DNA of 64,000 nt from Fidelibacterota bacterium. GTDB taxonomy: Bacteria > Fidelibacterota > Marinisomatia > SCGC-AAA003-L08 > JACNLC01. The translations under genes were made by a program, and so were the position numbers. Positions 3,101 through 40,746 of the stretch are shown piece by piece. Under the pieces are notes generated by a model. The model was not told the DNA's origin, searched no databases, and saw only the letters and a program-made list of their open reading frames with translations. The first letter of the stretch is position 1. Every line of letters begins with the position of its first letter. Where the stretch lies: positions 122,016-186,015 of the forward strand of contig JABHXA010000001.1 in assembly GCA_018657495.1 (NCBI GenBank), written 5' to 3'.

Positions 3101-3673
3101 TTATTCACCATCAAATTCCCATGCGTATGTTGTAAAATGGTCAATCCAGAATGAAATGGTTTCATTTTCATTATTCAGTTCGAATCCGTCAACGAAAAAC
3201 CAATAATCACCAAGTTGACTAAAGTAGATATCGGCGGCATCCAGATCACCGTCAAAATCTAGGTATGCCCATGACAAAGTAATCAGAACTGGTTCATTAA
3301 AATTCATACTGGGAAGTAATTCCACCCCTGCACCGCATTGCTGATTGTTTTCTATGCAAATAACTTCTAGTGAAAATTCAACATCTTCCGATAGTGCTCC
3401 AGGTGGAAAATATACAGAATTACCATAAGTATTATCTACTCCAAGCAATCCACCCTCAGGTCCAATGATCTGGTCATCAAATCCGTCCCGAGATAAAGAT
3501 CTAATCATTTGCTTCATCTGAGCATTCCATGGAATTATTGATAGTTCTTCCGTAGGGATTCCATTGCCTTCACTGTTTTGAGGGCCAGTAATTGGGTTTT
3601 CACTGCATCCAAATATCAATAAAATAACCAAAAGGATGTTGATTGCACCCCTGTTAATCTTTTGCGCTGTCAT
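3101..3673 (-). CDS. hypothetical lipoprotein
   Basis: 190-aa ORF. The N-terminal signal peptide ends in the lipobox LLIFGC. The rest is acidic and aromatic-rich with no recognisable family motif. Confidence 0.5.
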   Translation of the reverse strand: MTAQKINRGAINILLVILLIFGCSENPITGPQNSEGNGIPTEELSIIPWNAQMKQMIRSLSRDGFDDQIIGPEGGLLGVDNTYGNSVYFPPGALSEDVEFSLEVICIENNQQCGAGVELLPSMNFNEPVLITLSWAYLDFDGDLDAADIYFSQLGDYWFFVDGFELNNENETISFWIDHFTTYAWEFDGE

Positions 3674-4526: not shown

Positions 4527-5969
4527 TTAGTGTTTACTGTCATTATAAATGGACATTAACTTGGTTTTCAACACTTTTCCAGTATCAGTTCTGGGAATAG
4601 AATTAACATAAAAAACCTCTTTTGGGATTTTGTAATCAGCCAGCTTTCCTTTACAATAATTTTTTATTTCTATACCTTGATCACCTGGTTTTATTAAACC
4701 TCTACTTTCATCATAATTTTTTAATACTATAAATGCCACAATCTTCATTCCCCATTCATTATCAGGAAGTTTTGCAACTTCACAGTCATTAACATCAGGG
4801 ATCTGCATGAGGATATTTTTAACCTCTTCTGGACTCACATTTTCACCACCGCTAATAATAATATTATCTTTTCTCCCTGAAATGTATGTTTTATTATCAT
4901 CACTGATCCTAGCCAAATCACCAGTGTAATGTATACCCCTGCAATCAGTTTCACCGATGTATCCCTTCATAACCATAGGTCCTGATACAACTATCTCTGA
5001 ATCATCAACTTGCAACTTAACATCATTGAATGGAAAACCAATATAATTACCATCTTCCTCGGCTGTAACCGCTGAAAGATGCCAGCCGCAGATTCCTGAA
5101 CATGTTTCAGTCATTCCATAACTGACCATTATTGGCAAATTGGATTCCCGGCAGATCTTTAATAACTTATCGGAAATCGGACCCCCTCCAATAACTATTA
5201 AGCGAAGACTTGAAAATAATGAAGTGATATTATTAGACTGCAGTAACCGAGACATCATGGTGGGGACCAATGAAATTAATGATATGTCCTGATGATATAT
5301 TAATTGATTTACTTTGTTGATGTTGAAATCGATTGCAATGGAAATATTAAAGCCATACAGTAGTGCTCTAATAATAATATTTAATCCTCCCACATGGGAA
5401 ACGGGAAGACATAACAGATAATTATCATGTTCTGTGAATTGAACTTCTTGATGCCAGCTCCTGGCGCTGGAAATAAAATTTACTGCTGTTAATTGAACTG
5501 CTTTCGGAAGTCCAGTACTGCCAGACGTAAATAGTATTACGCAGACGTCTTCAGGATCCGGCAGAACATTCGGTAAATCCTGGATGAAATATGTATCAGA
5601 TAAATCAAAATCATCAACTGACAATTGATTAATTTTATTTTTCTTAAATACTTTTAAGTGAGATTGATCTGTTACCAAGATCGCTGGTTTGACAGTTTCA
5701 AAGCAGGAGATAATCTCATCGTTGGTAAATTTCCTATGCAAAGGAATTACGACTGCACCCAAATTCTGGCCAGCAAGGAAAAATCGAATAAATGCGATTG
5801 GGTCATCAATGCTCAGCATTATTCGCGATTGTCGGGAGACCCCTTTTTTATGAAGCTGAGAAGCAATTTTGAGAGATTCCATCATCAGGGTTTTCATTGT
5901 CCATAAAGTCCCGTTGTAATATACTCTGGCCTTTTCGTTTTGCAATTGAATGTTATATAATGACTGCAA
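4527..5969 (-). CDS. menE: o-succinylbenzoate--CoA ligase (AMP-binding enzyme)
   Basis: Adenylate-forming motifs LFTSGSTGLPKAV, YGMTE, GDLA and SGRKDNIIISGGENV. It is the last gene of a co-directional menB-menA-menC-menE run. Confidence 0.85.
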   Translation of the reverse strand: MQSLYNIQLQNEKARVYYNGTLWTMKTLMMESLKIASQLHKKGVSRQSRIMLSIDDPIAFIRFFLAGQNLGAVVIPLHRKFTNDEIISCFETVKPAILVTDQSHLKVFKKNKINQLSVDDFDLSDTYFIQDLPNVLPDPEDVCVILFTSGSTGLPKAVQLTAVNFISSARSWHQEVQFTEHDNYLLCLPVSHVGGLNIIIRALLYGFNISIAIDFNINKVNQLIYHQDISLISLVPTMMSRLLQSNNITSLFSSLRLIVIGGGPISDKLLKICRESNLPIMVSYGMTETCSGICGWHLSAVTAEEDGNYIGFPFNDVKLQVDDSEIVVSGPMVMKGYIGETDCRGIHYTGDLARISDDNKTYISGRKDNIIISGGENVSPEEVKNILMQIPDVNDCEVAKLPDNEWGMKIVAFIVLKNYDESRGLIKPGDQGIEIKNYCKGKLADYKIPKEVFYVNSIPRTDTGKVLKTKLMSIYNDSKH

Positions 5970-5997
5970 ATCTAAAATCTAATCAATGGGGAAATTG

Positions 5998-7029
5998 TTA
6001 TGCTTCACGGTATTCAATCCCAAGGCCAGGGATCTCTCCAATATACATTCTTCCATTTTCTTGAAAGGGAATATTTTGCTGATCATCATCAAATAATGAA
6101 CCCGTCATGAATCCACATGCTTCAGTAATTTGATACGCACAAGATAAATGAAGCAATGCCATCCTGCCAATATATGATTCCATCATAGAGGTTATCACAC
6201 TTCTAATACCATGGTCCGCAGCGAGTTCTATTATCTCCTTTGTATTTTTAAACCCCCCAGAAACCATCGGTTTTATTACGAATACATCGGTTGCGCCTGC
6301 ATCGATTAAGTTTTGGGCCGATATAATATCTGTCAGGGATTCATCGGCGGCGATAGGAATAGTAGTATTTTTGCGTAATTCTGAAATTTGATGGATTTTA
6401 TCCCTGGATAGAGGTTGTTCAAGGTAATCAATATTGTACGAAGATAATAAATCGCACGCCTCTAAAGCTGTGTTCAAATTCCAAGCACCATTGACATCTA
6501 ATCGAAGCTTGACGGTTGGTCTCAGGCTCATTGTAATATTTTTGACAAAATCGATATCTTCTAATAAAGTATTGCTGCCAATTTTCAACTTTACAACTTC
6601 AACTCCACTTTGCAACTCAAAACCTTTATGATAAAGCATGTTTACTTTCACAAATGAACAGGTGCTTTTATTGATGTAAAAAGCCATAACAGTCTTATTC
6701 ATTTTTGATAATATATCAAGAATAGCCGTCTCCATGGCGAAACAGGCTGAGGGGATTTCTTTTAATAAATCCCGGATAATATCAAGCAGTTTTGCATCAA
6801 CATCAATCCCTTTGATGGTTTTTGCAACGGATATGAGGGCAGATAAACATTCCTTTTCGGACTCGGTGCTGAAACCAGTTAGCGGTGCTGCTTCGCCAAA
6901 ACCATTTATACCATTGGCAGATAGTTTGACGATGAAACCAGATCGATATTTATAGATCCGTTGTGATGTTTGAAGCGGAGTTTTAAAAAATATTTTATAT
7001 GGGATAACCTTGATGTCATTCAATTTCAT
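5998..7029 (-). CDS. menC: o-succinylbenzoate synthase (enolase superfamily, MLE subgroup)
   Basis: 343 aa with enolase-superfamily metal and base motifs (VKLKIG, LRLDVNGAW, YLEQP, AADES). It overlaps menA by 4 nt and sits in men-cluster context. Confidence 0.8.
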   Translation of the reverse strand: MKLNDIKVIPYKIFFKTPLQTSQRIYKYRSGFIVKLSANGINGFGEAAPLTGFSTESEKECLSALISVAKTIKGIDVDAKLLDIIRDLLKEIPSACFAMETAILDILSKMNKTVMAFYINKSTCSFVKVNMLYHKGFELQSGVEVVKLKIGSNTLLEDIDFVKNITMSLRPTVKLRLDVNGAWNLNTALEACDLLSSYNIDYLEQPLSRDKIHQISELRKNTTIPIAADESLTDIISAQNLIDAGATDVFVIKPMVSGGFKNTKEIIELAADHGIRSVITSMMESYIGRMALLHLSCAYQITEACGFMTGSLFDDDQQNIPFQENGRMYIGEIPGLGIEYREA

Positions 7030-7898
7030 AGTATTAAACCAAGAACAAATAGTATGCTGTAGACCATCATCACTCTTGCAGTGCCCCCCAGAATGGGATA
7101 TAATTCCCTCCCTTCAAGGGTCCATACCGATATAGTCATTTTTACAGCCACGGGTATTGAGAAGAGATACAGGTACATGGATAAATCGTTTTTCCAGGTG
7201 ACTGCCAATACTGCCGGGATGAAATATGAAATCACCATCATAAGGCTATATTCTAAACGACCGAATAGTTTTCCCCATCTGACAACAAGAGTTCTTTTCC
7301 CCGTTTTCGTATCTGTTTCCACGTCGCGAAGATTATTAACCACAAGGATTGCAGTTGAAAATGTTCCCATGGAAAAACCAACAAGCAATGATTCGATTGA
7401 GATCATTCCGGTTTGCAGATAGTAAGTACCAGGTACAGCGATAAGTCCAAAAAATACAATTACAAATATATCACCCCAACCATGATAACCAAGGGGATAA
7501 GGTCCACCTGTATAGGCAATCCCAGCTGCAATGGATGCCAAACCAATCCACACGATGGGCCAACCACCGATATATACTAGATAAGTACCGGCAGCAAGAG
7601 CCAAACTGAAAGTGATAATCATGCCATTTTTCACCTGGGTAGTGGATAACAATCCCGACTGAGTGACCCTGGCCGGACCGATCCGTTCAGAGGTATCGGT
7701 TCCGTTGAGAAAATCAAAAAGATCATTGGCAAGATTTGTACCAATTTGAATTAACATGGCAGCAATCAATGTAATCAAACCAGTGTTCCAATGAGATATG
7801 CCGTCATGGAATGCTAATGCCACACCAAGCATCACCGGCGCAATTGCTGCAGGTAATGTTTTTGGTCGAGATGCCAGTATCCAGTATTTAATTTTCAT
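7026..7898 (-). CDS. menA: 1,4-dihydroxy-2-naphthoate polyprenyltransferase (UbiA family)
   Basis: 290-aa polytopic membrane protein with the UbiA Asp-rich motifs NLANDLFDFLNGTD and NNLRDVETD. Men-cluster context. Confidence 0.85.
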   Translation of the reverse strand: MKIKYWILASRPKTLPAAIAPVMLGVALAFHDGISHWNTGLITLIAAMLIQIGTNLANDLFDFLNGTDTSERIGPARVTQSGLLSTTQVKNGMIITFSLALAAGTYLVYIGGWPIVWIGLASIAAGIAYTGGPYPLGYHGWGDIFVIVFFGLIAVPGTYYLQTGMISIESLLVGFSMGTFSTAILVVNNLRDVETDTKTGKRTLVVRWGKLFGRLEYSLMMVISYFIPAVLAVTWKNDLSMYLYLFSIPVAVKMTISVWTLEGRELYPILGGTARVMMVYSILFVLGLIL

Positions 7899-7968
7899 AA
7901 ACAGTAGATGAATAGAAATACAAATATTTCAACAGGTGAGAATACAGGGAAAAAGGAGTAAATATCAA

Positions 7969-8799
7969 TTAGGGCAGACGGTCAAATTTTGAGAAATCCG
8001 GATTTCTTTTTTCTTTAAAAGCGTTCCTTCCCTCCTTGGCTTCCTCGGTCATATAAAACAATAATGTTGCATCTCCAGCCAGCTGTTGCAATCCTGCCTG
8101 ACCGTCGCAGTCTGCATTCAATGCTGCTTTTAATAAACGAATAGACATGGGAGATTTTGCTAGAATTTCACGACACCAGTCGACCGTTTCTTCTTCTAAC
8201 TTTTTGAGAGGAACCACGGAATTTACCAAACCCCAATTTAAGGCGGTGGGGGCATCTATAAAGCGACACATAAACCATAATTCCCGAGCCCGTTTTTGTC
8301 CGATGATCCTTGCCATATATGACGCACCCCAGCCTCCGTCAAATGACCCAACCTTGGGACCAGTCTGTCCAAATTGAGCATTGTCTGCTGCAATCGTCAG
8401 ATCGCACATCATATGGAGAACATGTCCTCCACCCACAGCATATCCGGCAACCATAGCAATGACCGGTTTGGGAATATACCGTATCTGCTTTTGTACATCA
8501 AGAATATTGAGTCGGGGTACGCCGTCATCGCCGATATAACCTTGATCCCCTCGGATTTTCTGATCGCCGCCTGAACAAAAAGCATCCGGTCCTTCACCGG
8601 TGAGGATAATCACACCAACCGAAGCATCCTCTCGTGCCAATTCAAAGGCATCTTTGAGATCGTGGACAGTTTGGGGACGAAAGGCATTTCTCACTTCAGG
8701 ACGATTGATGGTTATTTTGGCGATACCGCTAGCGTCTTTAGTGCCTCGATCATATTTTATATCTTTGTAATCTTTTATGGATTCCCAGTTGTAATTCAT
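7969..8799 (-). CDS. menB: 1,4-dihydroxy-2-naphthoyl-CoA synthase (crotonase fold)
   Basis: 276 aa. Typical MenB strings are [49 protein letters not shown] and the C-terminal KRNPDFSKF. Confidence 0.92.
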
Positions 8800-8841: not shown

Positions 8842-9762
8842 TTACCATAATAGTCCAATTGTGAAGATGAATGCTTTGTCATCATAATCATTGAATGTCA
8901 TAGTATAATCCAGATTTGCAATAATCTGGAAGTTATATGTCCTGAATGTTCGTATTCCGGTGCTTAACAACAATTCGAATCCATCATTTCTTAGTTCATC
9001 TTTGCCGGGATGAGCTACCCAGTGAAATCCTAGTCCAGCACCGATAAACGGGCAGAAATCTCCTTTTGATAATAAGTAATCGGTAAAGACATTTGCAGAA
9101 ATACCTTTCCGTGTAGCAAATTGCATTCCCACAAAGAATTTTTCCATGTCATATCCTTTTCGGAAATCCAAAGTCAGGGAACGGTCTACATCTCCATATC
9201 CGTGCTGCGGATACATATATCCAAAGGAAACTCCCGTATAACCTCGAGCTTCCCGGCGCCGGAACATTTTGTCATTTTCTTTCTCAATTATTGTACCGAC
9301 TTGAGCAGATTCCGATAGGGAGGTGCGATTTACAATACTGGAAGCAATTCTTTTCATTATGGTATCCAATGACTCCACTGATTCTGCCGTAATACTGTCA
9401 CCGATGATCGTGGTTTTGTTTTCAACATCAATCAATAGATATTGAACAACAATCTTCTCCCCAAGAATACTCATAGAGCACAGTACAGCTTCAGTTGCAC
9501 CAACCATTCGCCCAACATTTCCAGCACATCCGGCATCACTGCATATACTGCCATCAAGGGCGCGCTCGATATCCTGCATAGGGGCAACCTGCAATGGTGT
9601 AAGAATACTTATTTCCTGGACAAGTAGATTTTCAGCTGTTTTTGTAGAGTACCTGTCCATCCCTAATGTATGAATAGGAAGTATAGCTATTTTGCCTTGA
9701 GCAGATAAGATGGATGCCAATCCTAATAAACTTAGAAACAGTGATTTTGATATATTCTTCAT
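8842..9762 (-). CDS. hypothetical outer-membrane protein (signal peptide, N-terminal globular domain, C-terminal small beta-barrel)
   Basis: 306 aa. Signal peptide LGLASILSAQG. The C-terminal half has alternating hydrophobic beta-strand patterning and ends in an aromatic residue (..FTIGLLW). Co-directional with menB, 42 nt upstream of it. Confidence 0.45.
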   Translation of the reverse strand: MKNISKSLFLSLLGLASILSAQGKIAILPIHTLGMDRYSTKTAENLLVQEISILTPLQVAPMQDIERALDGSICSDAGCAGNVGRMVGATEAVLCSMSILGEKIVVQYLLIDVENKTTIIGDSITAESVESLDTIMKRIASSIVNRTSLSESAQVGTIIEKENDKMFRRREARGYTGVSFGYMYPQHGYGDVDRSLTLDFRKGYDMEKFFVGMQFATRKGISANVFTDYLLSKGDFCPFIGAGLGFHWVAHPGKDELRNDGFELLLSTGIRTFRTYNFQIIANLDYTMTFNDYDDKAFIFTIGLLW

Positions 9763-14566: not shown

Positions 14567-15853
14567 TTAATCACCAAATAACCGACTAAAAAATCCTCGG
14601 TTTTCCTCATATTCTTCATATAATTCTGTAGCTATTGCTTTTATTTCTGATAGGTCCATGACCATTTCATTCCAGCCATACCATAATGAATAATCCGGGT
14701 TATTATGAAACGCACCCTGGAATAATCTCATTCGGTGTTTTAGATGCATGACAAATAATTTCTGCTCGATTGGTGTTGGTGCATCATGGAATGTTAGCAA
14801 ATCAGGAAAATTGTATAAATAGGTATCCGGTTTAACCAGGAGACCTTTTTCATATAAATCAGCGATAATTCGAATTGCCTCAGCCAAAAGAGCATCTCCA
14901 GCTTTGATGAGATCATCGCCTTTTTTCAATTCACCACGACTATAATTTTCAGAATGGCATTTCATACAGACTTTTATCATTTTCTCTCTCTCAACATCGA
15001 ATCCTTCTGCGGTTAATCGTGCCACCTGGGCATTTGCCACCACATCTAATCTACCAGTTGGTTTTCCTTCTGGATCCAAAACTCCTAAGGCCTGAAGTAT
15101 AGTTACCCGATTTGCCCACCATTCAGCATCTTCTCCTGGATAGGGAGCCAGTCCGTCCGTTCTTACAGCTAGAAATCCCCACGCTGTTCTTACCTCATGA
15201 TCCCCATCGGGCATATGACAATCCTGACAAGTTGGGGCACTGGTATTTTCCGGTAGGATACCGTTCTGTTTTAATAAGTATCTTACACCATGTTTTGATG
15301 ATGAATACATTTCCCACTGCGGATGATCAAAACCCATATGACAGGTCTGGCAAGCCTGGGGTTGACGCGCTTCTTTTAGTGAAAATGTGTGTCTGGTGTG
15401 ACAGGCGTCACAGCTGGCATTACCATAAGTATTACCATTTTTTCTCAGGTTTTCAATCTGAGATTTTGATTTCATTCCAATTTTGTGACAGCCCCCACAA
15501 CCCTTCTGGCCCTCTATCAATTCCATGGGTTTCCAATGGGTTGTCGGCATCGCTTCCATGGCTGCCCAGGCTAATGCATGTTTACCTTTTGAAAACTGCT
15601 CAACCTTTTCTTCATGACATTCAGCGCATGTTTCAGGTGTTGGAAATTCTACTTTTTCCACATCATTATTGTTTTGGTGTTCTTCCCCATGACAGACATC
15701 ACAGCCAATGTCATTCTCGCTATGGGCACTGATTTCCCAATCAGTGACTATACCCGGTTGGATTTCCTTATGGCAATCTGTACAGGTGTCTGCATATAGT
15801 AAGGTGATGGATGCCAGCATAGCTGTTATAAGAATATTCCGTAAATATCTCAT
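14567..15853 (-). CDS. octaheme c-type cytochrome, hydroxylamine oxidoreductase (HAO) family
   Basis: 428 aa with a signal peptide and eight CXXCH motifs (CTDCH, CDVCH, CAECH, CGGCH, CDACH, CQTCH, CQDCH, CMKCH). The core CDACHTRHTFS..RQPQACQTCHMGFDHPQWEMYSSSKHG matches, from memory, the conserved HAO core [37 protein letters not shown]. Confidence 0.8.
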   Translation of the reverse strand: MRYLRNILITAMLASITLLYADTCTDCHKEIQPGIVTDWEISAHSENDIGCDVCHGEEHQNNNDVEKVEFPTPETCAECHEEKVEQFSKGKHALAWAAMEAMPTTHWKPMELIEGQKGCGGCHKIGMKSKSQIENLRKNGNTYGNASCDACHTRHTFSLKEARQPQACQTCHMGFDHPQWEMYSSSKHGVRYLLKQNGILPENTSAPTCQDCHMPDGDHEVRTAWGFLAVRTDGLAPYPGEDAEWWANRVTILQALGVLDPEGKPTGRLDVVANAQVARLTAEGFDVEREKMIKVCMKCHSENYSRGELKKGDDLIKAGDALLAEAIRIIADLYEKGLLVKPDTYLYNFPDLLTFHDAPTPIEQKLFVMHLKHRMRLFQGAFHNNPDYSLWYGWNEMVMDLSEIKAIATELYEEYEENRGFFSRLFGD

Positions 15854-16069: not shown

Positions 16070-16459
16070 ATGAAAATATATTTTCCAGGTGGAAAAAAAG
16101 TATATGCCGATTTTAATGGATTCACACACAAAACAGATCAGCCAGTTATAAGCGGTGGAGATGAATCATCACCAGCACCATTTGATATGTTTCTTGCATC
16201 ACTGGGTACCTGTGCCGGGATTTATGTTCTGGGATTTTGTCAACAGAGAAATATCGATACTGAAGGAATTGAAATAGCCCAGTCACATAAATTCAATCCA
16301 GCGACGAAATTGATTGAAGAAGTGAATATTGAAATTAAGTTACCTGCAGTCTTTCCCAGGAAATATTCCGATGCACTCACCCGTGTTGCACAAATGTGTG
16401 CCGTAAAAAAACATCTTGAGAATCCTCCTGGTTTTCAAGTCACAACGAAGTTTAATTGA
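16070..16459 (+). CDS. OsmC/Ohr-family protein (peroxiredoxin-like)
   Basis: 129 aa. It has the OsmC-like core SSPAPFDMFLASLGTCAGIYVLGFC with two Cys residues, plus C-terminal MCAVKKHL. Confidence 0.7.
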   Translation: MKIYFPGGKKVYADFNGFTHKTDQPVISGGDESSPAPFDMFLASLGTCAGIYVLGFCQQRNIDTEGIEIAQSHKFNPATKLIEEVNIEIKLPAVFPRKYSDALTRVAQMCAVKKHLENPPGFQVTTKFN

Positions 16460-16543
16460 TAAAATAAATATTATAGTATATAAATAGCGTTCACAACATC
16501 ATTTTTTGAATAATTTAATGCTATAGAAAGGACTCAATTAATA

Positions 16544-17965
16544 ATGAAACAACTTCGGATACCTTCATCACTCCGTCGATTTACATCTGGATCAGCTGTG
16601 CTCACTGTGAAAGGCTACACCATAAAAGAAATTCTGAAAGAGCTGTTCACTCAATTTCCTGAAATACAATTTCAGTTAACTACAGAAGCAGGGAGTTTGC
16701 TAAGCATATTCAACCTGTATTTAGATGGTATAAACATCAAACAGCTGGACGGAATGGAAACAAAACCGGGAGATAATTCAGAAATCATAATAATTCCAAC
16801 TTTTGCATCAGGTACCGAAGACGAGCTCCCACCATTGGTCTCAGATGAGGTTGTCAGATACAGTAGACATTTGCACCTTCCCGAAATTGGAGCACATGGT
16901 CAGAGTAAATTAAAAAATTCCAGCGTACTAATTGTCGGCACCGGCGGACTCGGCAGTCCAGTATCATTATATCTCGCTGCTGCTGGTGTGGGGACCATCG
17001 GTCTGGTTGATTTTGACATTGTGGATGCATCCAATCTTCAGCGACAGATAATATTTAATGTGGATGATACTGGGGAATCAAAGGTTGAGGCAGCGTCAGA
17101 AAAATTAAAAAAATTGAATCCATTTATCAATATTCAGAAGCACAATGTCCAGCTAAACTCTGAAAATGCTATAGAGATTATTCAAAACTATGATCTTGTG
17201 GTTGACGGCTCAGACAATTTCCCAACCCGCTATCTTGTAAATGATGCCTGTGTAATATTGAATAAACCAAATGTATATGGGAGCATTTACCGTTTTGATG
17301 GTCAGGTATCCGTGTTTAATTTTAAAGATGGACCCTGTTATCGCTGTCTATATCCTGAGCCACCTCCACTGCATTTGGTGCCTTCTTGTGCCGAGGGAGG
17401 GGTACTGGGTGTGCTCCCGGGGATTATCGGTACTTTACAGGCCAACGAGGTCATAAAAATTCTTTTAAATATTGGTGATACATTGTCTTCACGCCTATTA
17501 TTATTTGATGCTCTGGCAATGGAATTCTCTGAAATGAAATTGAAGAAAAACGAAAATTGCCCTGTATGCGGTAAACACCCCACAGTCAAAAAACTGATTA
17601 ATTATGTGGAATTCTGCGGGGTTCCTGACTTGCCCTCAAGGGAATCGCATCAGGATATTTCGGTTGAAGAATTACATAATAAATTAAATAATGGTGATAA
17701 TATTACTATTGTAGATGTTCGCGAGACCTTTGAATTGCAGATATCCAGACTTGAAAATGCTGTACATATCCCGGTAAATGAGATTCCTTCACGTCTGAAT
17801 GAATTAGAATCTGCCGATGAACTTGTTATTCTCTGTCGAACCGGGATCAGATCGGCGCAAATCTGTCAATTTTTAGTTAATCAGAATTTCAAAAATGTAA
17901 AAAATGTTATTGGCGGAATCAATGACTGGGGACGAAAAATAGATCCCTCACAGAAATTATATTGA
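16544..17965 (+). CDS. fusion protein: CysO/MoaD-like ubiquitin-fold domain + ThiF/MoeB (MoeZ-type) adenylyltransferase + rhodanese domain
   Basis: 473 aa in three parts:
- Residues 1-~90 (MKQLRIPSSLRRFTSGSAVLTVKGYTIKE...NLYLDGINIKQLDGMETKPGDNSEIIIIPTFASG) follow the CysO/MoaD beta-grasp pattern.
- The E1 core has RYSRHLHLPEIG, the GTGGLGS nucleotide loop and the zinc pairs CYRC/CPVC.
- The C-terminal rhodanese domain has the active-site loop CRTGIRS. Confidence 0.8.
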   Translation: MKQLRIPSSLRRFTSGSAVLTVKGYTIKEILKELFTQFPEIQFQLTTEAGSLLSIFNLYLDGINIKQLDGMETKPGDNSEIIIIPTFASGTEDELPPLVSDEVVRYSRHLHLPEIGAHGQSKLKNSSVLIVGTGGLGSPVSLYLAAAGVGTIGLVDFDIVDASNLQRQIIFNVDDTGESKVEAASEKLKKLNPFINIQKHNVQLNSENAIEIIQNYDLVVDGSDNFPTRYLVNDACVILNKPNVYGSIYRFDGQVSVFNFKDGPCYRCLYPEPPPLHLVPSCAEGGVLGVLPGIIGTLQANEVIKILLNIGDTLSSRLLLFDALAMEFSEMKLKKNENCPVCGKHPTVKKLINYVEFCGVPDLPSRESHQDISVEELHNKLNNGDNITIVDVRETFELQISRLENAVHIPVNEIPSRLNELESADELVILCRTGIRSAQICQFLVNQNFKNVKNVIGGINDWGRKIDPSQKLY

Positions 17966-18039: not shown

Positions 18040-18501
18040 TTATAATTCTTGCTCAACCCCTAAATTTGCCAAATCATCGGCTCTTTCATTCCCGGGATCA
18101 CCAGCATGACCCTTTACCCATTTCCACGACATTTGGTGTCGGAGAGTTTCCTTTTCAAGTTGCATCCATAGCTGTTGATTTTTTACCTGCTTTTTATTAC
18201 TCGTTTTCCAACCATTCATTTTCCAACTATGAATCCACTTCGTGATGCCATTCTTTACATAGGATGAATCGGTAACGAGAGTAACATGGCAAGATGTTTT
18301 GAGTGCTGCAAGCGCTTTAATTACCGCCGTCAATTCCATAATATTATTTGTCGTTTGTGATTCTCCGCCATACATCTCTTTTTCGTGATCACCATAAAAC
18401 AATATTGCTCCCCAACCACCAGGTCCGGGATTTCCCTTGCAGGCGCCATCCGTATATATTTTCACTTCTTTCATCATTTTCTGCATCTGTAAATCTATCA
18501 T
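18040..18501 (-). CDS. rnhA: ribonuclease HI
   Basis: 153 aa with [40 protein letters not shown] and [14 protein letters not shown], giving the complete DEDD catalytic set. Confidence 0.92.
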
Positions 18502-23378: not shown

Positions 23379-24161
23379 TCAATTTTTCTTATTTAAACTT
23401 TTTAGGGTTGTTATAAATGAAGAAGCACCTTCCAATGGATTTACCGCTGTCTCCATTGCTTTTATTAGAGCACTACCCACCACAGCCCCATCCGAGTGCT
23501 GGTTAATTAGTTGTACATCTTGCGGAGATTTGATGCCAAATCCAACTACGTATGGAACTGTACTGTTTTTTTTGACTCGCATAAGATAATTAACAAGATC
23601 AGAGTTATCAGCTGATTTTTTACCCGTCACCCCTAAAACAGATACACAGTAAAGAAGAACACCTGAAATTTTTGATATTTTCTTAATTCTGCTATCAGGC
23701 GTATTCGGTGCAACCAGCATGATTGGTGCTAAACCATACTTTTTCATTTCATCCGTAATATCTTCACATTCTTCCGGCGGAAGATCGGGGATAATTAGTC
23801 CATCAACACCACATTGTTTACAATCCTTGATAAATTTTTGCCAGCCATATTGCATGATTGGATTGATGTATCCCATCAATACTATTGGAGTTTCACATCC
23901 ACGGCTGCGAATCAGGGTTACCTGCTCTAAAATCCACTTTACTGTCACTCCATTTGAAAGGGCAATTTGACTGGATTTCTGAATTATGGGTCCATCGGCA
24001 AGCGGATCAGAAAAGGGCATACCCAATTCGATCATATCTGCACCTGATGCTTCGGCAGCCAACACTAATGGTATGGTGATATCAAGAGAGGGATATCCTG
24101 CCGTGATAAATGGAATTAGCTTACTTTTAGGTTGTGAAAAGAGGGTTTTAATTCGATTCAT
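23379..24161 (-). CDS. trpA: tryptophan synthase alpha chain
   Basis: 260 aa with ELGMPFSDPLADGPIIQ and GFGI motifs. Last gene of the trp operon. Confidence 0.95.
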   Translation of the reverse strand: MNRIKTLFSQPKSKLIPFITAGYPSLDITIPLVLAAEASGADMIELGMPFSDPLADGPIIQKSSQIALSNGVTVKWILEQVTLIRSRGCETPIVLMGYINPIMQYGWQKFIKDCKQCGVDGLIIPDLPPEECEDITDEMKKYGLAPIMLVAPNTPDSRIKKISKISGVLLYCVSVLGVTGKKSADNSDLVNYLMRVKKNSTVPYVVGFGIKSPQDVQLINQHSDGAVVGSALIKAMETAVNPLEGASSFITTLKSLNKKN

Positions 24162-24182
24162 TTGATAATTGTTATTTCCAGA

Positions 24183-25385
24183 TTACAGTTTAATTCCGAG
24201 GTAATCAGCGACGGTATGAACGTCTTTATCACCACGTCCTGAAAGACAGATTACAACATTATCCCCTGCTGAAATTTCGTTTCCGGGCTTCCTGAGATAT
24301 GCCATTGCATGGGCTGATTCGAGGGCAGGTAATATCCCCTCCATCTCACTGAGCCATCTAAAAGCATTTACAGCTTCATCATCCGTTACCGAATCATAAA
24401 TTACTCTACCGATGTCTTTTAAATGACTGTGTTCCGGTCCGACACCAGGATAATCCAACCCGGCAGAGATGGAATGAGGAAGTGTAATTTGACCATCGTC
24501 ATTTTGAAGCAGATAACTTGCTGACCCGTGTAAAATACCATATTTACCTTGTGTCATTGTTGCTGCATGTTTATCCGTTTCGGTACCTAGTCCGGCAGCT
24601 TCGACCCCGATAAGTTTCACTTTATCAGATAAAAATGGATAGAACATACCAATGGCATTACTGCCACCGCCGACACATGCAACTATTACGTCAGGTAATT
24701 TATTTTCAGTTAATTTATCCATTGCAAAAAACTGTTCCCTGGTCTCGATGCCGATTACTGATTGAAAATCACGGACAATCATTGGGTATGGATGGGGCCC
24801 GACAACGGAGCCAATAAGATAGTAGGTGTTCTCGACGTTTTCGACCCAATCTCTGATCGCCTCATTGGTTGCATCTTTTAGCGTTTTGCTCCCAGAGTTT
24901 ACAGAACGAACCTCGGCACCCAGTAATTCCATTCGAAACACATTCAATTTCTGTCGGCGGATGTCTTCCTCACCCATATAAACCACACATTCCAGACCGA
25001 ATTGAGCCGCCACTGTAGCGGTCGCCACACCATGCTGCCCTGCTCCAGTCTCGGCAATGATTCGTTTTTTTTCCATCTTTTCGGCAAGAAGTATTTGACC
25101 CAGCGCATTATTGATTTTGTGAGCTCCGGTATGATTTAAATCTTCTCTCTTCAGATAAATATTAAATCCGCATTCTTTTGAGATTTGTCTGGCAAAATAT
25201 AAGGGAGTTGGCCGGCCGGAATAATTCTGAAGTAAATTGGTTAAACGATCCTGGAACTGGATATCATTTTGTATTTGCCCATAGAGTTCTTCCAGCTCAT
25301 TGATAGCCGGGATTAGTGATTCTGGGACATATTTTCCACCAAATTTATTGAAATGCCCTCTGATATCCGGGTATTCATAGGTCAT
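24183..25385 (-). CDS. trpB: tryptophan synthase beta chain
   Basis: 400 aa with [16 protein letters not shown] (PLP Lys), [10 protein letters not shown] and GGGSNAIG. Confidence 0.97.
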
Positions 25386-26068
25386 CAGACATCATCCGCT
25401 GAAATCGAATCATCTGGTAATTCTTCCTTTGTTGCTTCGAAAATATTCTTATATGGGCCAGTATTTTTAACCGTTTGAAAAAATTCATCTATTTTATTAT
25501 GATCTTTTAATCCAGGTGATAATTCAACACCACTGTTTACATCCAGAGCATGCGGATTGATGGTCTTTATGGCATCTTTGACAATTTTGTGATTTAACCC
25601 GCCACTTAAGATGATTGGTTTATTCCATTTATGATTATTGATAAGGGACCAGTCAAAGGATTTTCCAGTTCCGCCATAACTTTTTTCTGACCATGTATCC
25701 AGCAGGAGAGCGCAGACATTATTGGGGAATTCCATAGTTACGGATACCCCTTTTTTTAATCTCAATGCTCGTATGACAGGTTTTGAGAGAGACTGACAAA
25801 ATTCATCAGATTCGTCTCCATGGAGCTGAATTAAATCAAGACTTGCTGTTTTTATAATAGATTCAATGTGGGGCATAGATTCATTGACAAATATACCTAC
25901 TTTTTTAATTTTTCTATCCGTTCCCTCAGAAATAATCCCAGCACTTTTTGGTGAAATAAATCGTGGACTTCCAGGATAAAATATATAACCCATCGCAGAC
26001 GCCCCGACTCTTACAGCATATCTGGCATCACTCAAATTGGTTATGCCACAAATCTTTACCGGAATCAT
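25385..26068 (-). CDS. trpF: phosphoribosylanthranilate isomerase
   Basis: 227 aa with KICGIT, QLHG and LDVNSGVE. The TGA stop overlaps the trpB ATG by 1 nt. There is a short acidic C-terminal extension. Confidence 0.9.
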
Positions 26069-26845
26069 TTATTGTCCATCCAGTAACTGCGGGATGGCCA
26101 ACCCCGGATTGTCTTTATTCATAAGGGAAGTCCCAACTAGAATGGCATCATATCCAATTGTATCCACAAATCTAACATGCTCGTTGGAATGAATTCCACT
26201 TTCAGCAATTTTGATGGATGTTTCTGGAAGATGATGATAAGATGTTTCAAACCACTTCAAATCGATCTCCATAGTTTCGAGGTTTCTTGAGTTTACGCCA
26301 CAAATTTCCGGTTTCAATTTTTTGACTTTTTTTATCGCAGACATGGAGTGCGCCTCAACAAGAACTTTCAGTCCAATTTCCATTGCCTTTTCATATAATG
26401 ATTCTAATACAGAATATTCGAGGATATCGGCAATTAAAAGTAATGCATCAGCGCCATGCAAATATGATTCGTATACCTGGTACTCACTGATAATAAAGTC
26501 TTTACGGAGAATCGGAATTTTTACCGAAGATTTAATTTTTGATAGCAATTCAATTGATCCGCCAAAAAAGGGATTATCAGTAAGAACGGAAATTGCCGCC
26601 GCACCATTATTTTCATAGGATTCAGCAATTTCAACTGGATCATTTGTCTTATTAATGATACCCTCAGAAGGAGATTTCTGTTTTATTTCGGCGATGACCG
26701 ATATGACATCTGAAGTCAAAGCCTTGAGCATGTTTGCCCGTTTAAAATTTTTATGTTTTGCTCGTAAAACTTCTATGGGGGTTTTATTTTCTAAAACTTG
26801 TAGTTCCTGTTTTTTTGACTCAATAATTTTATTGAGTGTATTCAT
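26069..26845 (-). CDS. trpC: indole-3-glycerol-phosphate synthase
   Basis: 258 aa with VIAEIKQKSPS, LRKDFI, EAHS and GVNSRNL. It abuts trpF. Confidence 0.93.
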   Translation of the reverse strand: MNTLNKIIESKKQELQVLENKTPIEVLRAKHKNFKRANMLKALTSDVISVIAEIKQKSPSEGIINKTNDPVEIAESYENNGAAAISVLTDNPFFGGSIELLSKIKSSVKIPILRKDFIISEYQVYESYLHGADALLLIADILEYSVLESLYEKAMEIGLKVLVEAHSMSAIKKVKKLKPEICGVNSRNLETMEIDLKWFETSYHHLPETSIKIAESGIHSNEHVRFVDTIGYDAILVGTSLMNKDNPGLAIPQLLDGQ

Positions 26846-27840
26846 CTTTTAGAAATTAACTTTTGCATGACATCATATGCTGATCCAGAATCAATGGATT
26901 GCCTTGCCAGTTCAATTCCTTTTGATAAATATTCAACTTTTCCTCCAACAACGATACCTGCGGCAGCATTCAGCAAAACAATATCGCGTCTTGGCCCTGT
27001 TTCGCCACGGAAAATATCAATGATAATCTTGGCATTTTCTTCAGGTTCTCCGCCGGCCAAATCACCCAGCTTTGCAACGGCAATTCCATAATCTGCTGGA
27101 GAAAATACTGTGGATTTAATCGATCCATTTTCCAATTTGGTTACTTTAGTGGAAGATGTATTGGTAATTTCATCCATGCCGTCATGTCCATGCACAACCA
27201 TGGCAGACACAGCATTTAACCGTTTTAAAACTTTTGCAAGTGTTACAGTAAGCACACCATCATAAACTCCCAATACTTGTCGTCTGACACCTGCTGGATT
27301 TGCTAAAGGTCCGAGAATATTAAATACGGTCCTAACCCCAAGAGAAGTGCGCGCCTTGACTGCATATTTCATCGCTGGATGAAGATATGGTGCAAACATA
27401 AAACCGATACCAATTTCATCCACACACTCAGCAACTTTCTCAGGACTCATCGTGATATCAACACCCAATGCTGTCAGTACATCTGCAGACCCGGATTTGG
27501 ATGTCATGGATCGATTACCATGTTTGGCAACTTTTACTCCGGCACCGGCAACTACAAAAGAAGCTGCTGTGGAAATATTAAAAGTACCTCTGGCATCTCC
27601 TCCAGTACCACACATGTCTATGGCATCTGATTGGATGGGAACAGATGTCATTTTTTCTCTCATCGCCTGTGTAAATCCAGCTATCTCCGATGATGATTCT
27701 CCCTTAGAGCGCAATGCAATAAGAAATCCGGCAATCTGAACGTCATTAAATTCACCGGACATGATTTTAAACATAATTTCGCGGGATTCATCCTGATTTA
27801 AGCTTTGATTACCTAATAATTTGTCAATTGTTGTTTTCAT
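26842..27840 (-). CDS. trpD: anthranilate phosphoribosyltransferase
   Basis: 332 aa with DMCGTGGD, FNISTA and KHGNRS. It overlaps trpC by 4 nt. Confidence 0.95.
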   Translation of the reverse strand: MKTTIDKLLGNQSLNQDESREIMFKIMSGEFNDVQIAGFLIALRSKGESSSEIAGFTQAMREKMTSVPIQSDAIDMCGTGGDARGTFNISTAASFVVAGAGVKVAKHGNRSMTSKSGSADVLTALGVDITMSPEKVAECVDEIGIGFMFAPYLHPAMKYAVKARTSLGVRTVFNILGPLANPAGVRRQVLGVYDGVLTVTLAKVLKRLNAVSAMVVHGHDGMDEITNTSSTKVTKLENGSIKSTVFSPADYGIAVAKLGDLAGGEPEENAKIIIDIFRGETGPRRDIVLLNAAAGIVVGGKVEYLSKGIELARQSIDSGSAYDVMQKLISKR

Positions 27841-27883
27841 TTTATATTTCTCAATTTTTTTTCGGGCTTCGAAAAGTGGATAT

Positions 27884-28444
27884 TCAATTTAAAAAGTTTG
27901 AGACCATTTTTTTTCCATAGTCTGTCATAATAGATTCAGGGTGAAACTGAACACCGAATACCGGATATTTTTTATGTTCGATGCCCATGATAATACCATT
28001 ATCTGTCTCAGCAGTTATTCTTAAATCACTTGGAAATGAGCTTCTTTCTGCAATCAATGAATGATATCGAGTGGCGATGAAGGTCTCTGGAATATTATTA
28101 AATATTTTTGATTCCAAATGATTAATACTAGAGGTTTTTCCATGCACAATTTCATCGGCACAGATGATCTTGCCTCCAAATGCTTCCGTTATGGACTGGT
28201 GGCCAAGGCAAATTCCAAAAATCGGAATACTTTTATAAAATCGACGAATCAGGCTGATGGATATTCCCGCCTGCTGCGGAATACCTGGTCCGGGAGATAT
28301 AACTATTCGCTCAGGCTGCATTTTTTCAATATCCTGAATAGTTATTTTATCATTTCGAACTACGGTCAATTCAGAATTTATAACTCCAATGTACTGGACC
28401 AAATTATAAGTGAATGAATCGTAATTATCTATAATCAATATCAT
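27884..28444 (-). CDS. trpG: anthranilate synthase component II (glutamine amidotransferase)
   Basis: 186 aa with IDNYDSFTYNL, GICLGHQ (catalytic Cys) and GVQFHPES. Confidence 0.95.
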   Translation of the reverse strand: MILIIDNYDSFTYNLVQYIGVINSELTVVRNDKITIQDIEKMQPERIVISPGPGIPQQAGISISLIRRFYKSIPIFGICLGHQSITEAFGGKIICADEIVHGKTSSINHLESKIFNNIPETFIATRYHSLIAERSSFPSDLRITAETDNGIIMGIEHKKYPVFGVQFHPESIMTDYGKKMVSNFLN

Positions 28445-28451
28445 GTCTTTC

Positions 28452-29921
28452 TCACGTTACCAAACCATTTTCAGCAAAATCTATTGCTGCATTTATGGCT
28501 TTTGCTTTGTTGATACATTCATTGTATTCTTTCTCAGGGTCAGAATCGTGCACAATCCCTGCCCCGGCTTGAAAATAAGCAATGCCATCCTTAACCACCA
28601 TAGTTCTGATGGCAATACAGGTATTCATATTACCACAGAAATCGACAAAACCAACAGCTCCGCCATATATATTCCTCTTGGCTTTTTCTAAATTATGAAT
28701 AATTTCCATTGCCCTGATTTTTGGTGCACCCGTCAAAGTTCCTGCCGGAAAGCCACTTAATAATGCATCAATTAAATCTACATCCTGTCTTTTCTTTCCG
28801 TGGATTTCAGAAATTATATGCATAACATGAGAATATTTTTCTACCTGCATGAATTCATGAACTTTTACGGTTCCAAATTTGGAAACTTTCCCCACATCGT
28901 TTCTGCCCAAGTCAACAAGCATCAGGTGCTCGGCGCATTCCTTTTTATCTGCAAGCAGCTCATTTTCTAATAAATGGTCCTCCTGTTCGCTGTTTCCCCG
29001 GTGACGCGTGCCTGCAATAGGCCGTAAAATTATTGTGTTATCTTCTACTTTTACAAGCAATTCAGGTGAGGCGCCAATTATTGCCCAATCATCAATTTTA
29101 ATATAAAATAAATATGGCGACGGATTAATAGATCTCAAGGCTCGATAGATATCCACAGGTTTGGCATTTGTTTTCCTTTGGAATCTCTGGCTCAGTACCA
29201 CCTGAAAAATATCACCGGATTTTATATGGTCTTTGGCCTGTTTAACAACGTCAGTAAATTCTTCAAGTGTCGTTTCAAATTTAATTTTACTTCTCTTTAG
29301 TTTGACTGGACTCTGATAATCAATATCTGTATGGAGGTCATCTCCCAGTTCATCAATTCTCTGATTTGCTTTTGCATAGGCTTTCGGCAAATCATCTGTT
29401 TCAGTGTTGACATTACTAAATACAATAATTCTATTTTTTAAATGATCAAAAACGATGATATCCTCATAAACCATGAATACGGAATCCGGCACACCCAGTT
29501 CATCGGTATCGTAAATTGGAATATCCTCATTTAAACGGATGCATTCATATCCCAAATACCCCACAACCCCACCGGTAAACCCGGGAAATCCACTGATCTG
29601 ACAGCTGCTGTATGAGCTTACCAGGGTCCTAAGGTTATCTAAATATGAATTTGGACTTTCATAATTGAGATTATTTTCTGTGATTGTGGTTTTATTGTCG
29701 GCAAAATTGATTATCTTCTGGGGATTTCTTCCAATATAGGAATATCTTGAAAACCGAGTTCCTTTTTCAACTGATTCAAATAGAAAAGAATATTTTGAGT
29801 TTTGGGACAATCTCAAATAGGCCGAAATCGGCGTCAGTAAATCTGCAAGAATCTGCTTATATACCGGAACCATTTTATGCTTTCCGGCAAGTAATAAAAA
29901 TTCAGAATAAGTCATATCCAT
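28452..29921 (-). CDS. trpE: anthranilate synthase component I
   Basis: 489 aa with an N-terminal Trp-feedback region (LFESVE), GAPK.RAMEII, and the GGAVGY-type motif reading GGAVGF here. Confidence 0.95.
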   Translation of the reverse strand: MDMTYSEFLLLAGKHKMVPVYKQILADLLTPISAYLRLSQNSKYSFLFESVEKGTRFSRYSYIGRNPQKIINFADNKTTITENNLNYESPNSYLDNLRTLVSSYSSCQISGFPGFTGGVVGYLGYECIRLNEDIPIYDTDELGVPDSVFMVYEDIIVFDHLKNRIIVFSNVNTETDDLPKAYAKANQRIDELGDDLHTDIDYQSPVKLKRSKIKFETTLEEFTDVVKQAKDHIKSGDIFQVVLSQRFQRKTNAKPVDIYRALRSINPSPYLFYIKIDDWAIIGASPELLVKVEDNTIILRPIAGTRHRGNSEQEDHLLENELLADKKECAEHLMLVDLGRNDVGKVSKFGTVKVHEFMQVEKYSHVMHIISEIHGKKRQDVDLIDALLSGFPAGTLTGAPKIRAMEIIHNLEKAKRNIYGGAVGFVDFCGNMNTCIAIRTMVVKDGIAYFQAGAGIVHDSDPEKEYNECINKAKAINAAIDFAENGLVT

Positions 29922-39083: not shown

Positions 39084-39839
39084 ATGAAATTGCCATTGTA
39101 TATAGTTTCTGATAACCATTTCCTTATGCAGGCTGATCATCAGGAAAAAAGTCGACGTCTGCTGATATTTGATTTGTTTGACCAAATCAGTAACTCTGGG
39201 GGTACATTAATCATAGGTGGAGACTTTTTTGATTTCTGGTTTAATTATAAAAATGTAATGCCATCATTTTACACGGACATTATATATGAGTTAAACAAAT
39301 TAAATCAAAACGATGTGGAAATTCATTTTCTCGCCGGCAATCACGATTACTGGGATTTTGGTCTGCTTAGCTCCCTTACCGGTTGCATATTTCATGAAGG
39401 TGATTTTGAGTTTATTCTCGACCATAAGAAAATCCTGGTTACCCATGGTGATGGATTATTGTCATTTGATCATGGATATCGACTGATGAAAAAGATTATT
39501 CGAAGTAAGACCTGTATTTTTCTTTTTGGATTATTACATCCCGACTGGGGGTGCGCATTGGCTCGTTTTGTATCCACCACTGAAGAAAAATATGATAAAA
39601 TTGATAAAAACCATGAGAAAATAAAACAGGAGATTCAGTCATTCGCCCGCAATAAATGGGAAGAAGGTTATGACACCATCTTGGTAGGCCATTATCACAA
39701 TACCGGATTTTATGAATCTAATGATTCAAAAATGATCTGGCTTGGAGACTGGTTAACAAAATATACTGTGACTAAATATGCTCAGTTCGAGTGGTCTCAG
39801 GTCAATTGGAAAGAACATCAAAAAATAATTAAGGATTAG
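39084..39839 (+). CDS. metallophosphoesterase, LpxH-like (UDP-2,3-diacylglucosamine diphosphatase candidate)
   Basis: 251 aa. Calcineurin-like motifs are present in order: VSDNH, GGDFFDFW, AGNHDYW, THGD and GHYH. Confidence 0.6.
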   Translation: MKLPLYIVSDNHFLMQADHQEKSRRLLIFDLFDQISNSGGTLIIGGDFFDFWFNYKNVMPSFYTDIIYELNKLNQNDVEIHFLAGNHDYWDFGLLSSLTGCIFHEGDFEFILDHKKILVTHGDGLLSFDHGYRLMKKIIRSKTCIFLFGLLHPDWGCALARFVSTTEEKYDKIDKNHEKIKQEIQSFARNKWEEGYDTILVGHYHNTGFYESNDSKMIWLGDWLTKYTVTKYAQFEWSQVNWKEHQKIIKD

Positions 39840-39843
39840 TTAA

Positions 39844-40746
39844 ATGAATTTTAAGTTAATGATATTCACAATAATAGGGACAATATTTTTATCGGCTGCT
39901 CCTATTAAACCTTATATATTTATTGGGGAAAGTGGTGAATCCGTTGAAAGAACAAAATCCAAAATAATTCAGGCAGTATTTTTCTCCGATGAATCATTTG
40001 AAATAATTGGGGAATATAATCCTGAGAACAATCCTGAAAAACTTGTATTGATCCTAACCAATCCGACATTACAAAAAATTATTACAAATAGTAATGATAA
40101 TGCCGCTTACCTTGGAGGAATGCACCTTGCCATAACGGCAAAAGGTGAAATGACATATGTATCCTGTCAAAATCCGGAATATTGGGCGATTGCCTTCCTG
40201 CAGGATGATTATAATAAACATGAGTCTGCCATTATAAAATTCAAAAACGAATTGCTCGGATTGATGCCGTCAATGAGTATGCGCATAGATATGGAGTATG
40301 GTTCATATTCGGATTTAACTTCTGAGGAAATAAAAAATTATAAATATAAGCGGAAAATGCCAGGATTTTCAGATACAGTCAAGATTGGGGAATTTAAAAA
40401 CTTCAAAGAAGCTGTAGGCGTAATTGAATCAAATTTAGCTTCATCATCTGTTTGCAAACAGGTATTTACAAATAAGACAGAAGGCAAAAATGTACAGGTT
40501 TTTGGAATTGGTTTATCAGGGAATAACGGCGAATCAAGTTTCTTTAAAATATTTGATACAGGGGATAAGAGAGCAACTTCATTTTTACCCTATGAAATTA
40601 TAGTTATAGAGAATAACGTATTTATGTTAAATGGAAGATATAGGTTCGCCCTTGGATTTCCCGATCAGTCCAAAAAGATATTTTCAAAAACTAAATCAGT
40701 TCAAAAAAACATTGAAGCGGATTTGCGTACACTCATGATCAAATAA
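39844..40746 (+). CDS. hypothetical secreted protein
   Basis: 300-aa ORF with an N-terminal hydrophobic signal-like segment. It starts 4 nt after the LpxH-like stop. No family motif recognised. Confidence 0.4.
   Translation: MNFKLMIFTIIGTIFLSAAPIKPYIFIGESGESVERTKSKIIQAVFFSDESFEIIGEYNPENNPEKLVLILTNPTLQKIITNSNDNAAYLGGMHLAITAKGEMTYVSCQNPEYWAIAFLQDDYNKHESAIIKFKNELLGLMPSMSMRIDMEYGSYSDLTSEEIKNYKYKRKMPGFSDTVKIGEFKNFKEAVGVIESNLASSSVCKQVFTNKTEGKNVQVFGIGLSGNNGESSFFKIFDTGDKRATSFLPYEIIVIENNVFMLNGRYRFALGFPDQSKKIFSKTKSVQKNIEADLRTLMIK

Follow-up and report, generated by a model that had tools for sequence, protein, structure and literature searches.

A gene in a 64,000-nucleotide stretch of a Fidelibacterota genome (contig JABHXA010000001.1; the whole stretch is referred to here as the window) encodes, in a single reading frame, a ubiquitin-like (Ubl) sulfur carrier resembling CysO, a ThiF/MoeB-type activating enzyme (E1) and a rhodanese domain. 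The gene occupies positions 16544..17965 on the + strand and specifies 473 amino acids (aa) plus a stop codon from an ATG start. In the small clade to which it belongs, the genes for a CysM-type synthase and a JAB protease that accompany most of its relatives have been deleted, and the penultimate glycine of the carrier has been replaced. On balance, we favour reading the N-terminal domain as what remains of a cysteine-synthesis module that has been lost, borne on an E1/sulfurtransferase that is still functional.

Residues 1–90 (16544..16813, +) form a CysO-type beta-grasp domain of the ThiS/MoaD superfamily, degenerate in the query clade. The domain aligned end to end with Mycobacterium tuberculosis CysO by BLASTP (E=2e-10), placing S89-G90 opposite G92-G93, and a profile of the Ubl domains of the fused family matched the CysO structures of M. 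tuberculosis (3DWG_C, E=4e-21) and Amycolatopsis (4N6E_B, E=2e-22), ending in both cases exactly at the terminal Gly-Gly. Against a hidden Markov model (HMM) of the family's Ubl domains, the query domain scored 88.8 bits. Pfam ThiS (PF02597) matched residues 6–88 with 24.0 bits on the full protein and 21.6 bits on the isolated domain (gathering cut-off 22.5), and the nearest NCBIfam models, SAMP1 (37.6 bits, cut-off 60) and archaeal MoaD, both fell under their cut-offs. An AlphaFold2 model of residues 1–95 had a pLDDT of 89.6, and its best Foldseek matches in the PDB were the two CysO structures, 4N6E_B and 3DWG_C (TM 0.85–0.90, root-mean-square deviation 1.7–1.9 Å), followed by SAMP1, MoaD-related proteins and Urm1. 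The confident model and its CysO matches bear out the beta-grasp fold that the original prediction had proposed for the N terminus. At the site of the family's Gly-Gly, the query has S89-G90 (codons at 16808..16813, +; penultimate Gly to Ser), so that the C-terminal Gly-Gly of a carrier is lacking, and the domain is internal to a 473-aa open reading frame (ORF).

A linker, TEDELPPLV (residues 91–99; 16814..16840, +), leads into an intact ThiF/MoeB adenylation domain (residues 100–345; 16841..17578, +) and then a rhodanese domain (residues 373–464; 17660..17935, +), the active-site loop of which begins at C431 (CRTGIRS, nucleotides 17834-17854). On the full protein, Pfam reported ThiF at 106–341 (PF00899, 277.8 bits) and Rhodanese at 373–464 (PF00581, 60 bits). 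The C-terminal 375 residues grouped in NCBIfam with MoeB/MoeZ adenylyltransferase/sulfurtransferases, exceeding the cut-off of the MoeB model NF006444 (461.4 against 449) and falling short of those of the MoeZ model NF005902 (441.9 against 647) and NF005646 (473.4 against 633); sequence matches in the PDB were MoeB (1JW9, E=2e-56), Uba4 (6YUB, E=3e-54) and ThiF. In domain architecture, this part of the protein is a MoeZ-type E1 with rhodanese, as in MoeZR, Uba4 and MOCS3. It shares its catalytic residues with Uba4 and MOCS3, the eukaryotic E1-rhodanese enzymes for Urm1 and MOCS2A, which, unlike the query, have no N-terminal carrier domain.

The E1 motifs are all present: the RYSRH Arg finger, GTGGLGS (132–138), DFD, NLQRQ, DGSDN, C282 in the crossover loop, and complete zinc pairs at C265/C268 (CYRC, 265–268) and C339/C342 (CPVC, 339–342). 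The query keeps the residues that are invariant in the family, R105, G132-G137, D156/D158, R167, D221/D224, C265/C268 and C339/C342 in the E1, and C431 and R436 in the rhodanese loop (CRTGIRS, 431–437). These intact catalytic residues, together with a ratio of non-synonymous to synonymous substitution rates (dN/dS) of 0.05 in the E1, predict that the protein adenylates a carrier and transfers sulfur to it. In the full-length AlphaFold2 monomer, the Ubl domain was confident and the junction (87–92) disordered; the inter-domain arrangement, at a pTM of 0.59, was not confident. The motifs listed in the original prediction, including IPSSLRRFT near the N terminus and IIIIPTFASG-TEDELPP across the junction, were all found in the DNA and translation of 16544..17965, and its three-part identification (CysO-like carrier, ThiF/MoeB and rhodanese) was upheld by the Pfam, NCBIfam and PDB matches.

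The gene call of the Joint Genome Institute (JGI) for the same protein (P0001, 452 aa) begins at the GTG of residue 22, 21 codons late, and so removes 16544-16606 of the window, which encode beta-strand 1 and the IPSxLRRFT motif; its precomputed Pfam list does not include ThiS. Because residues 1–21 are conserved in homologues, a start at the ATG of 16544 is preferable. We also considered an internal start at the invariant Leu98 that would bypass the Ubl domain. This codon is TTG in the window and in locus L005, but it is TTG in 13 of 67 fused genes and hence uninformative.

Loss of the partner genes is evident from synteny. The fusion protein has relatives with 90% (P0002, junction -AAG), 82% (P0003, -SEG) and 64% (P0004, -AGG) identity to the query. 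At the locus of P0004 (L006, junction IAGG), the gene order is men genes, multihaem cytochrome, OsmC, a small opposite-strand ORF, a CysM-like gene with a PALP domain, JAB, fusion and RNase H. These flanks recur in the window, P0002 and P0003, where OsmC is followed directly by the fusion. In the window, the OsmC-family gene (16070..16459, +), which has no shown part in the sulfur-carrier system, and the fusion are separated by an intergenic gap of 84 nucleotides (16460..16543), the original prediction having put an OsmC gene 85 nucleotides upstream on the same strand; at the syntenic site, P0004 has the small ORF, the CysM-like gene and JAB. The RNase H gene lies downstream (18040..18501, −). 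Thus, the query clade deleted cysM and JAB at a syntenic site, and the same clade lost the penultimate Gly.

Searches of the window support this conclusion. Across all 64 kb, neither tblastn nor HMMs detected a JAB or CysM-type sequence (best E ≥ 0.14), a carrier or another E1, which covers, for this window, the search for JAMM, CysM and carrier genes proposed in the original prediction, and the same methods found no remnant of the cysM-like gene, JAB or the small ORF in the 84-nucleotide gap. Pfam annotation of the other ORFs in the window revealed no molybdenum cofactor, thiamine, cysteine or carrier genes, and no ThiS or thiamine genes lie near the fusion in the window or in the relatives examined. 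The window's sole PALP gene is trpB, within the trp operon. Between OsmC and the fusion, we found no terminator, and a scan around the gene gave no informative promoter, as judged by a sigma-70 consensus that may not apply to this phylum.

The residues of the carrier domain have also decayed. Of the Ubl and linker positions that are at least 90% conserved in the other 108 sequences, 8 of 27 are changed in the query, compared with 9 of 166 in the E1 and rhodanese domains. The otherwise invariant R53, F55 and G89 are all replaced. Position 89 is Ser in the query, Ala in P0002 and Glu in P0003, and is Gly in all 108 other full-length homologues; the Gly-to-Ala change in P0002 is the same as that in the G81A mutant of MoaX, discussed below. 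Between the query and P0003, identity is 55% in the Ubl domain and 90% in the E1, and dN/dS values by the NG86 method are 0.43 (Ubl), 0.05 (E1) and 0.14 (rhodanese). As a control, we computed the ratio of Ubl to E1 dN for 94 pairs of fused genes with E1 identities from 0.80 to 0.985. The query pair had the highest ratio of the 94 (5.8), pairs retaining Gly-Gly ranging from 0.3 to 4.1, and its Ubl dN/dS was the second highest. These comparisons suggest that selection on the Ubl domain is relaxed, not absent. A domain-specific acceleration on the deeper branch was not apparent: in a relative-rate test against P0004, the query lineage evolved 2.35-fold faster in the Ubl domain and 1.99-fold faster in the E1. 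The relaxation signal consequently rests on the within-clade comparison and on the lost invariant residues.

To place this clade in context, we surveyed the fused family. A homology search found this set of three Pfam domains in over 100 clusters of ~470-aa proteins, at identities as low as 51%; Marinimicrobia and other FCB-group bacteria account for most of them. A junction-spanning profile matched at least 592 stretches in species-representative genomes, and our locus counts refer to the best 80 of these. The 80 loci include Acidobacteriota, Gemmatimonadota, Bacteroidota, Verrucomicrobiota, Omnitrophica, Spirochaetia, Cyanobacteriota, Moritella, Shewanella and one Nitrososphaerales archaeon; 66 carry the fusion and 14 have separate, adjacent cysO and E1 genes. 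Among 1.84 billion representatives clustered at 50% identity, 108 matched the profile at E≤1e-30, most of them across the junction.

The fused architecture is already known. It is common, some JGI names for cluster members list all three parts, and comparative-genomic surveys noted both Ubl-E1 fusions and an operon type comprising ThiS/MoaD, E1-rhodanese, JAB and cysteine synthase (PMC1779556, PMC2948915). The original prediction had pointed to such surveys, although the architecture proves far commoner than it implied. Makarova and Koonin described a 'Ubl-E1-TBP in Thaumarchaeota', shared with bacteria (PMC2948915), and the fused CysO-E1 gene at 3913-4359 of L082, from a metagenome-assembled genome of a Nitrososphaerales archaeon (JAB 28 nucleotides and PALP 567 nucleotides upstream), matches the Ubl-E1 fusion noted there. 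Just as the original prediction knew of no experimental characterization, our search of the literature library turned up no paper that characterizes a CysO-MoeZ or Ubl-E1 fusion experimentally.

The junction is strongly conserved outside the query clade. Homologues typically read -AGG followed by a linker of variable length: of 111 full-length homologues, 108 have Gly-Gly, and xGG is found in 142 of the 144 representatives at 50% identity. The three exceptions among the full-length homologues are the members of the query clade. The contrast between -ASG here and the usual -AGG was recognized from the outset; its restriction to one small clade emerged only from the orthologue survey, which also found the fused form to be widespread and Gly-Gly to be kept in ~98% of relatives. 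The 80 genome loci were fetched partly with a pattern containing AGG, and their 100% AGG is not independent evidence. Outside the clade, Gly-Gly was lost in P0179 (AGA) and P0265 (-ACG; locus L089), the latter being the one further case found of a lost penultimate Gly. The gene for P0265 (L089, 4640-6270) has frameshifts in its Ubl and E1 parts and shares its contig with other fragmented genes; there is no JAB or PALP gene within 5 kb upstream. P0265 is either an independent decay event or the product of a noisy assembly, and with a gene and contig full of frameshifts we did not count it as independent support for joint loss of Gly-Gly and the partner genes.

In relatives, the fusion belongs to a three-gene operon of type 4c/4d in Iyer et al. 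2006 (PMC1779556), the adjacent JAB and CysM-type genes of which are both missing from the window. At L003, L006, L007 and L008, the order is PALP (CysM-like), Prok-JAB, fusion, and no separate PF02597 ThiS/MoaD carrier gene occurs within 10 kb on either side. Of the 80 loci, 73 have a JAB gene that ends no more than 400 nucleotides upstream and lies on the same strand, and 66 have both JAB and PALP upstream in the canonical order. The exceptions have JAB and/or PALP farther off or reordered, lack PALP alone or, in a few cases, sit on contigs with little upstream sequence; in a single locus, 4 kb of upstream sequence is present and both genes are absent. The PALP proteins of relatives had cysM/cysKM as their best NCBIfam matches, and the JAB proteins, which contain the HxHx7Sx2D motif, best matched a haloarchaeal desampylase model. 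Upstream of the fusion gene at L072 and L076, the JAB and PALP HMMs matched one stop-to-stop ORF, suggesting a predicted CysM-JAB fusion protein in some Vicinamibacteria/Acidobacteriota.

What such a module might do is indicated by MoaX, a MoaD-MoaE fusion that must be cut after Gly-Gly to work (PMC4326299). Replacing its penultimate Gly (G81A) abolishes both cleavage and function, whereas a MoaX with its terminal Gly replaced is still cleaved and yields an inactive carrier (PMC4326299). Similarly, the JAMM protease DRJAMM cleaves the Deinococcus MoaD-MoaE fusion (PMC8832034). By analogy with MoaX, there is strong support for regarding the fused family as CysO precursors released by the neighbouring JAB protease. 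Their cleavage can be deduced from context: the adjacent JAB gene, the lack of a standalone carrier, the -AGG junction and the tails of unfused CysO. In the 14 unfused relatives, CysO has 0–13 residues beyond Gly-Gly. Post-GG tails of standalone CysO include YA, R, NIV, CSALNK, C, NGDR, V, CDR and GQEM, and tailed proteins occur at L013, L022, L023, L026, L045, L051, L055, L065, L070, L081 and L086, about 270–300 nucleotides past the start of the profile match at each locus. As unfused CysO is so often tailed, proteolytic maturation seems normal in the family, and the short tails would imply C-terminal processing of the kind described for QbsE and HcyS.

In the module we envisage, the ancestral and widespread gene set was cysM - JAB(mec) - cysO::moeZ, and the carrier would be translated as the N terminus of its own E1. 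The adjacent JAMM/JAB protease would then liberate the carrier by a cut after Gly-Gly, the newly exposed C-terminal Gly would be adenylated by the E1 domain, and the rhodanese persulfide would convert the adenylated carrier to a thiocarboxylate. A CysM-type synthase would form the CysO-cysteine adduct, from which the same protease would release cysteine and regenerate the carrier. If so, the JAMM protease has two jobs, maturing the carrier from its own E1 and later releasing cysteine, in a parallel to eukaryotic ubiquitin, which is made as fusion precursors trimmed by deubiquitinases. The original prediction had offered JAMM cleavage or a regulatory or docking role; the former is strongly supported for the family as a whole, and neither is the best account of the query gene.

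Several characterized systems share parts of this design. The query domain is homologous in sequence and fold to CysO of the M. tuberculosis CysO/MoeZR/Mec+/CysM system, the C-terminal part corresponds to MoeZR in combining E1 and rhodanese, and the operon of relatives supplies the same partners as the M. tuberculosis cysteine pathway, a CysM-type pyridoxal phosphate-dependent enzyme and a JAB protease. M. tuberculosis has a separate gene for CysO and an unlinked one for MoeZR, and its Mec+ releases cysteine from the CysO adduct. By contrast, carrier and E1 are one polypeptide in the query, the window has neither cysM nor JAB, and the di-glycine is degenerate (S89-G90). MoaX of M. tuberculosis and DR2607 of Deinococcus resemble the fused family in that the sulfur carrier is the N terminus of a partner enzyme in a fusion cut at Gly-Gly. 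Their partner, however, is the downstream sulfur acceptor MoaE rather than the activating E1, and, unlike the CysO-E1 family, they have been characterized experimentally. The unfused relatives, with 1–13 residues after Gly-Gly and an adjacent JAB gene, are reminiscent of QbsE/QbsD and HcyS/HcyD, in which C-terminal extensions are cut by JAMM proteases in thioquinolobactin and homocysteine pathways rather than in cysteine synthesis. The fusion resembles an extreme case of the precursor design seen in these short-tailed carriers. Campylobacter-type Ubl-ThiF fusions also join an N-terminal beta-grasp domain to an E1-like adenylation domain; their Ubl domain is distinct from ThiS, a standalone ThiS co-occurs, in thiamine operons, and there is no rhodanese (PMC1779556). 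The query falls outside that group, having a CysO-like Ubl domain and a rhodanese domain, and its relatives have no standalone carrier nearby.

For the query protein, we consider the following history likely, although far from certain. Deletion of cysM and JAB would have brought OsmC to 84 nucleotides upstream of the fusion and left the carrier domain without a job, after which substitutions removed the penultimate Gly along with further invariant residues. The Ubl domain would since have drifted under relaxed, although not absent, purifying selection, persisting probably because an essential E1 needs its start codon and a soluble N terminus. The present protein would then be an uncleaved MoeZ/MoeB-type E1/sulfurtransferase for carriers encoded elsewhere, such as MoaD, ThiS or a tRNA-thiolation carrier; MoeZR in mycobacteria serves both CysO and MoaD (PMC3227635).

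Several observations weigh against this history. At 0.43, the Ubl dN/dS still lies significantly below 1 (Fisher p=0.002), all three clade members keep G90 and the linker (91–99) has no non-synonymous change relative to P0003. The Ubl excess in the relative-rate test is small, and in the 94-pair control the Ubl domain is the fastest-evolving part of normal relatives too. Cleavage in the fused family, the activity supposedly lost, is itself read from sequence context. The window represents 64 kb of the genome, and cysM and JAB could lie elsewhere. Finally, HvJAMM1 is reported, as cited in PMC8832034, to cut linear fusions without requiring a di-glycine.

Some of these points would fit a carrier that is still functional, cut by a JAB or other protease encoded elsewhere so as to end in -SG and feeding a relocated CysM or another thiocarboxylate-dependent enzyme. 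Such a carrier would account for the intact, confidently modelled fold, for the retained terminal Gly90 and for a Ubl dN/dS below 1, and the behaviour ascribed to HvJAMM1 and the 64-kb reach of our search both leave room for it. Yet we consider it improbable. Position 89 is Ser, Ala or Glu in close relatives, which looks like lost constraint rather than a new specificity, the invariant R53 and F55 have gone as well, and ~98% of relatives keep a di-glycine whose penultimate residue, in MoaX, is needed for both cleavage and function (G81A; PMC4326299). Moreover, JAB and cysM, neighbouring genes in 66–73 of 80 relatives, were deleted at the syntenic site. Alternatively, the uncleaved Ubl domain may have acquired a new role as a regulatory or docking element in cis, for instance as a pseudo-substrate gating the carrier site of the E1 or as an adaptor for a partner. 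The residual purifying selection (p=0.002 against neutrality) and fully conserved linker are in keeping with this idea, and for another ThiF-fused Ubl domain, one that co-occurs with standalone ThiS, Iyer et al. 2006 suggested a role other than that of a carrier (PMC1779556). However, no residue beyond the losses has become newly fixed across the clade, the three sequences differ at many formerly conserved sites, the need of an essential enzyme for its start codon and soluble N terminus also explains the residual constraint, and the modelled inter-domain arrangement is not confident (pTM 0.59). We therefore hold a new function in general to be unlikely. A specific version, in which the domain was kept after the loss of cysM and JAB as a built-in pseudo-substrate or gate on the carrier surface of the E1, regulating or biasing the choice that the E1 makes among free carriers (MoaD, ThiS or a tRNA-thiolation carrier), is more speculative still; if true, a bacterial ubiquitin-like domain would have turned from substrate into cis-regulator of its own E1.

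An artefactual fusion, in which a frameshift or misassembly joined two neighbouring genes, was the remaining concern raised in the original prediction, and is lent some colour by the 14 of 80 related loci in which unfused cysO and moeZ lie side by side. It has next to no probability, however, as the identical protein occurs on 12 independent contigs, over 100 clusters and 66 of the 80 species-representative genomes share the same continuous frame with a variable linker, and no stop codon or frame change occurs at the junction. We accordingly excluded it.

The query clade amounts to a natural 'knock-out': it lacks the protease and synthase, and its penultimate Gly has decayed, which supports functional coupling of the parts. 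The query copy itself is probably a remnant of a known architecture and is modest as a discovery. JAMM-dependent maturation of a carrier from its own E1 would be worth testing on a member of the family that retains Gly-Gly, for which the query clade provides a natural negative control. The gene also carries two cautions for annotation: a match to ThiS/MoaD in an E1 is not in itself a sign of a working carrier, and the Ubl domain can be cut short by gene callers, as in the JGI call here.

Elsewhere in the window, ORFs at 52600-54411 (+, 603 aa), 39084-40746 (+, 251 and 300 aa), 8842-9762 (−, 306 aa) and 3101-3673 (−, 190 aa) had no Pfam match at the thresholds used. Redox-defence genes recur beside the fusion, with thioredoxins and AhpC/1-Cys peroxiredoxin at L003 (1124-2032 and 11606-12244) and, in L006 and the window clade, OsmC; the recurrence may be fortuitous or an echo of the oxidative-stress role proposed for the CysO pathway. 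A 428-aa multihaem cytochrome (Multi-haem_cyto / Cytochrome_C554; 14567-15853, −) stands beside OsmC in all syntenic relatives. A menaquinone-type cluster (4527-8799, −) with AMP-binding (MenE-like), MenC-like, UbiA prenyltransferase and enoyl-CoA hydratase (MenB-like) genes is syntenic with L006, and a complete trp operon (trpE-G-D-C-F-B-A) occupies 23379-29921 on the − strand.

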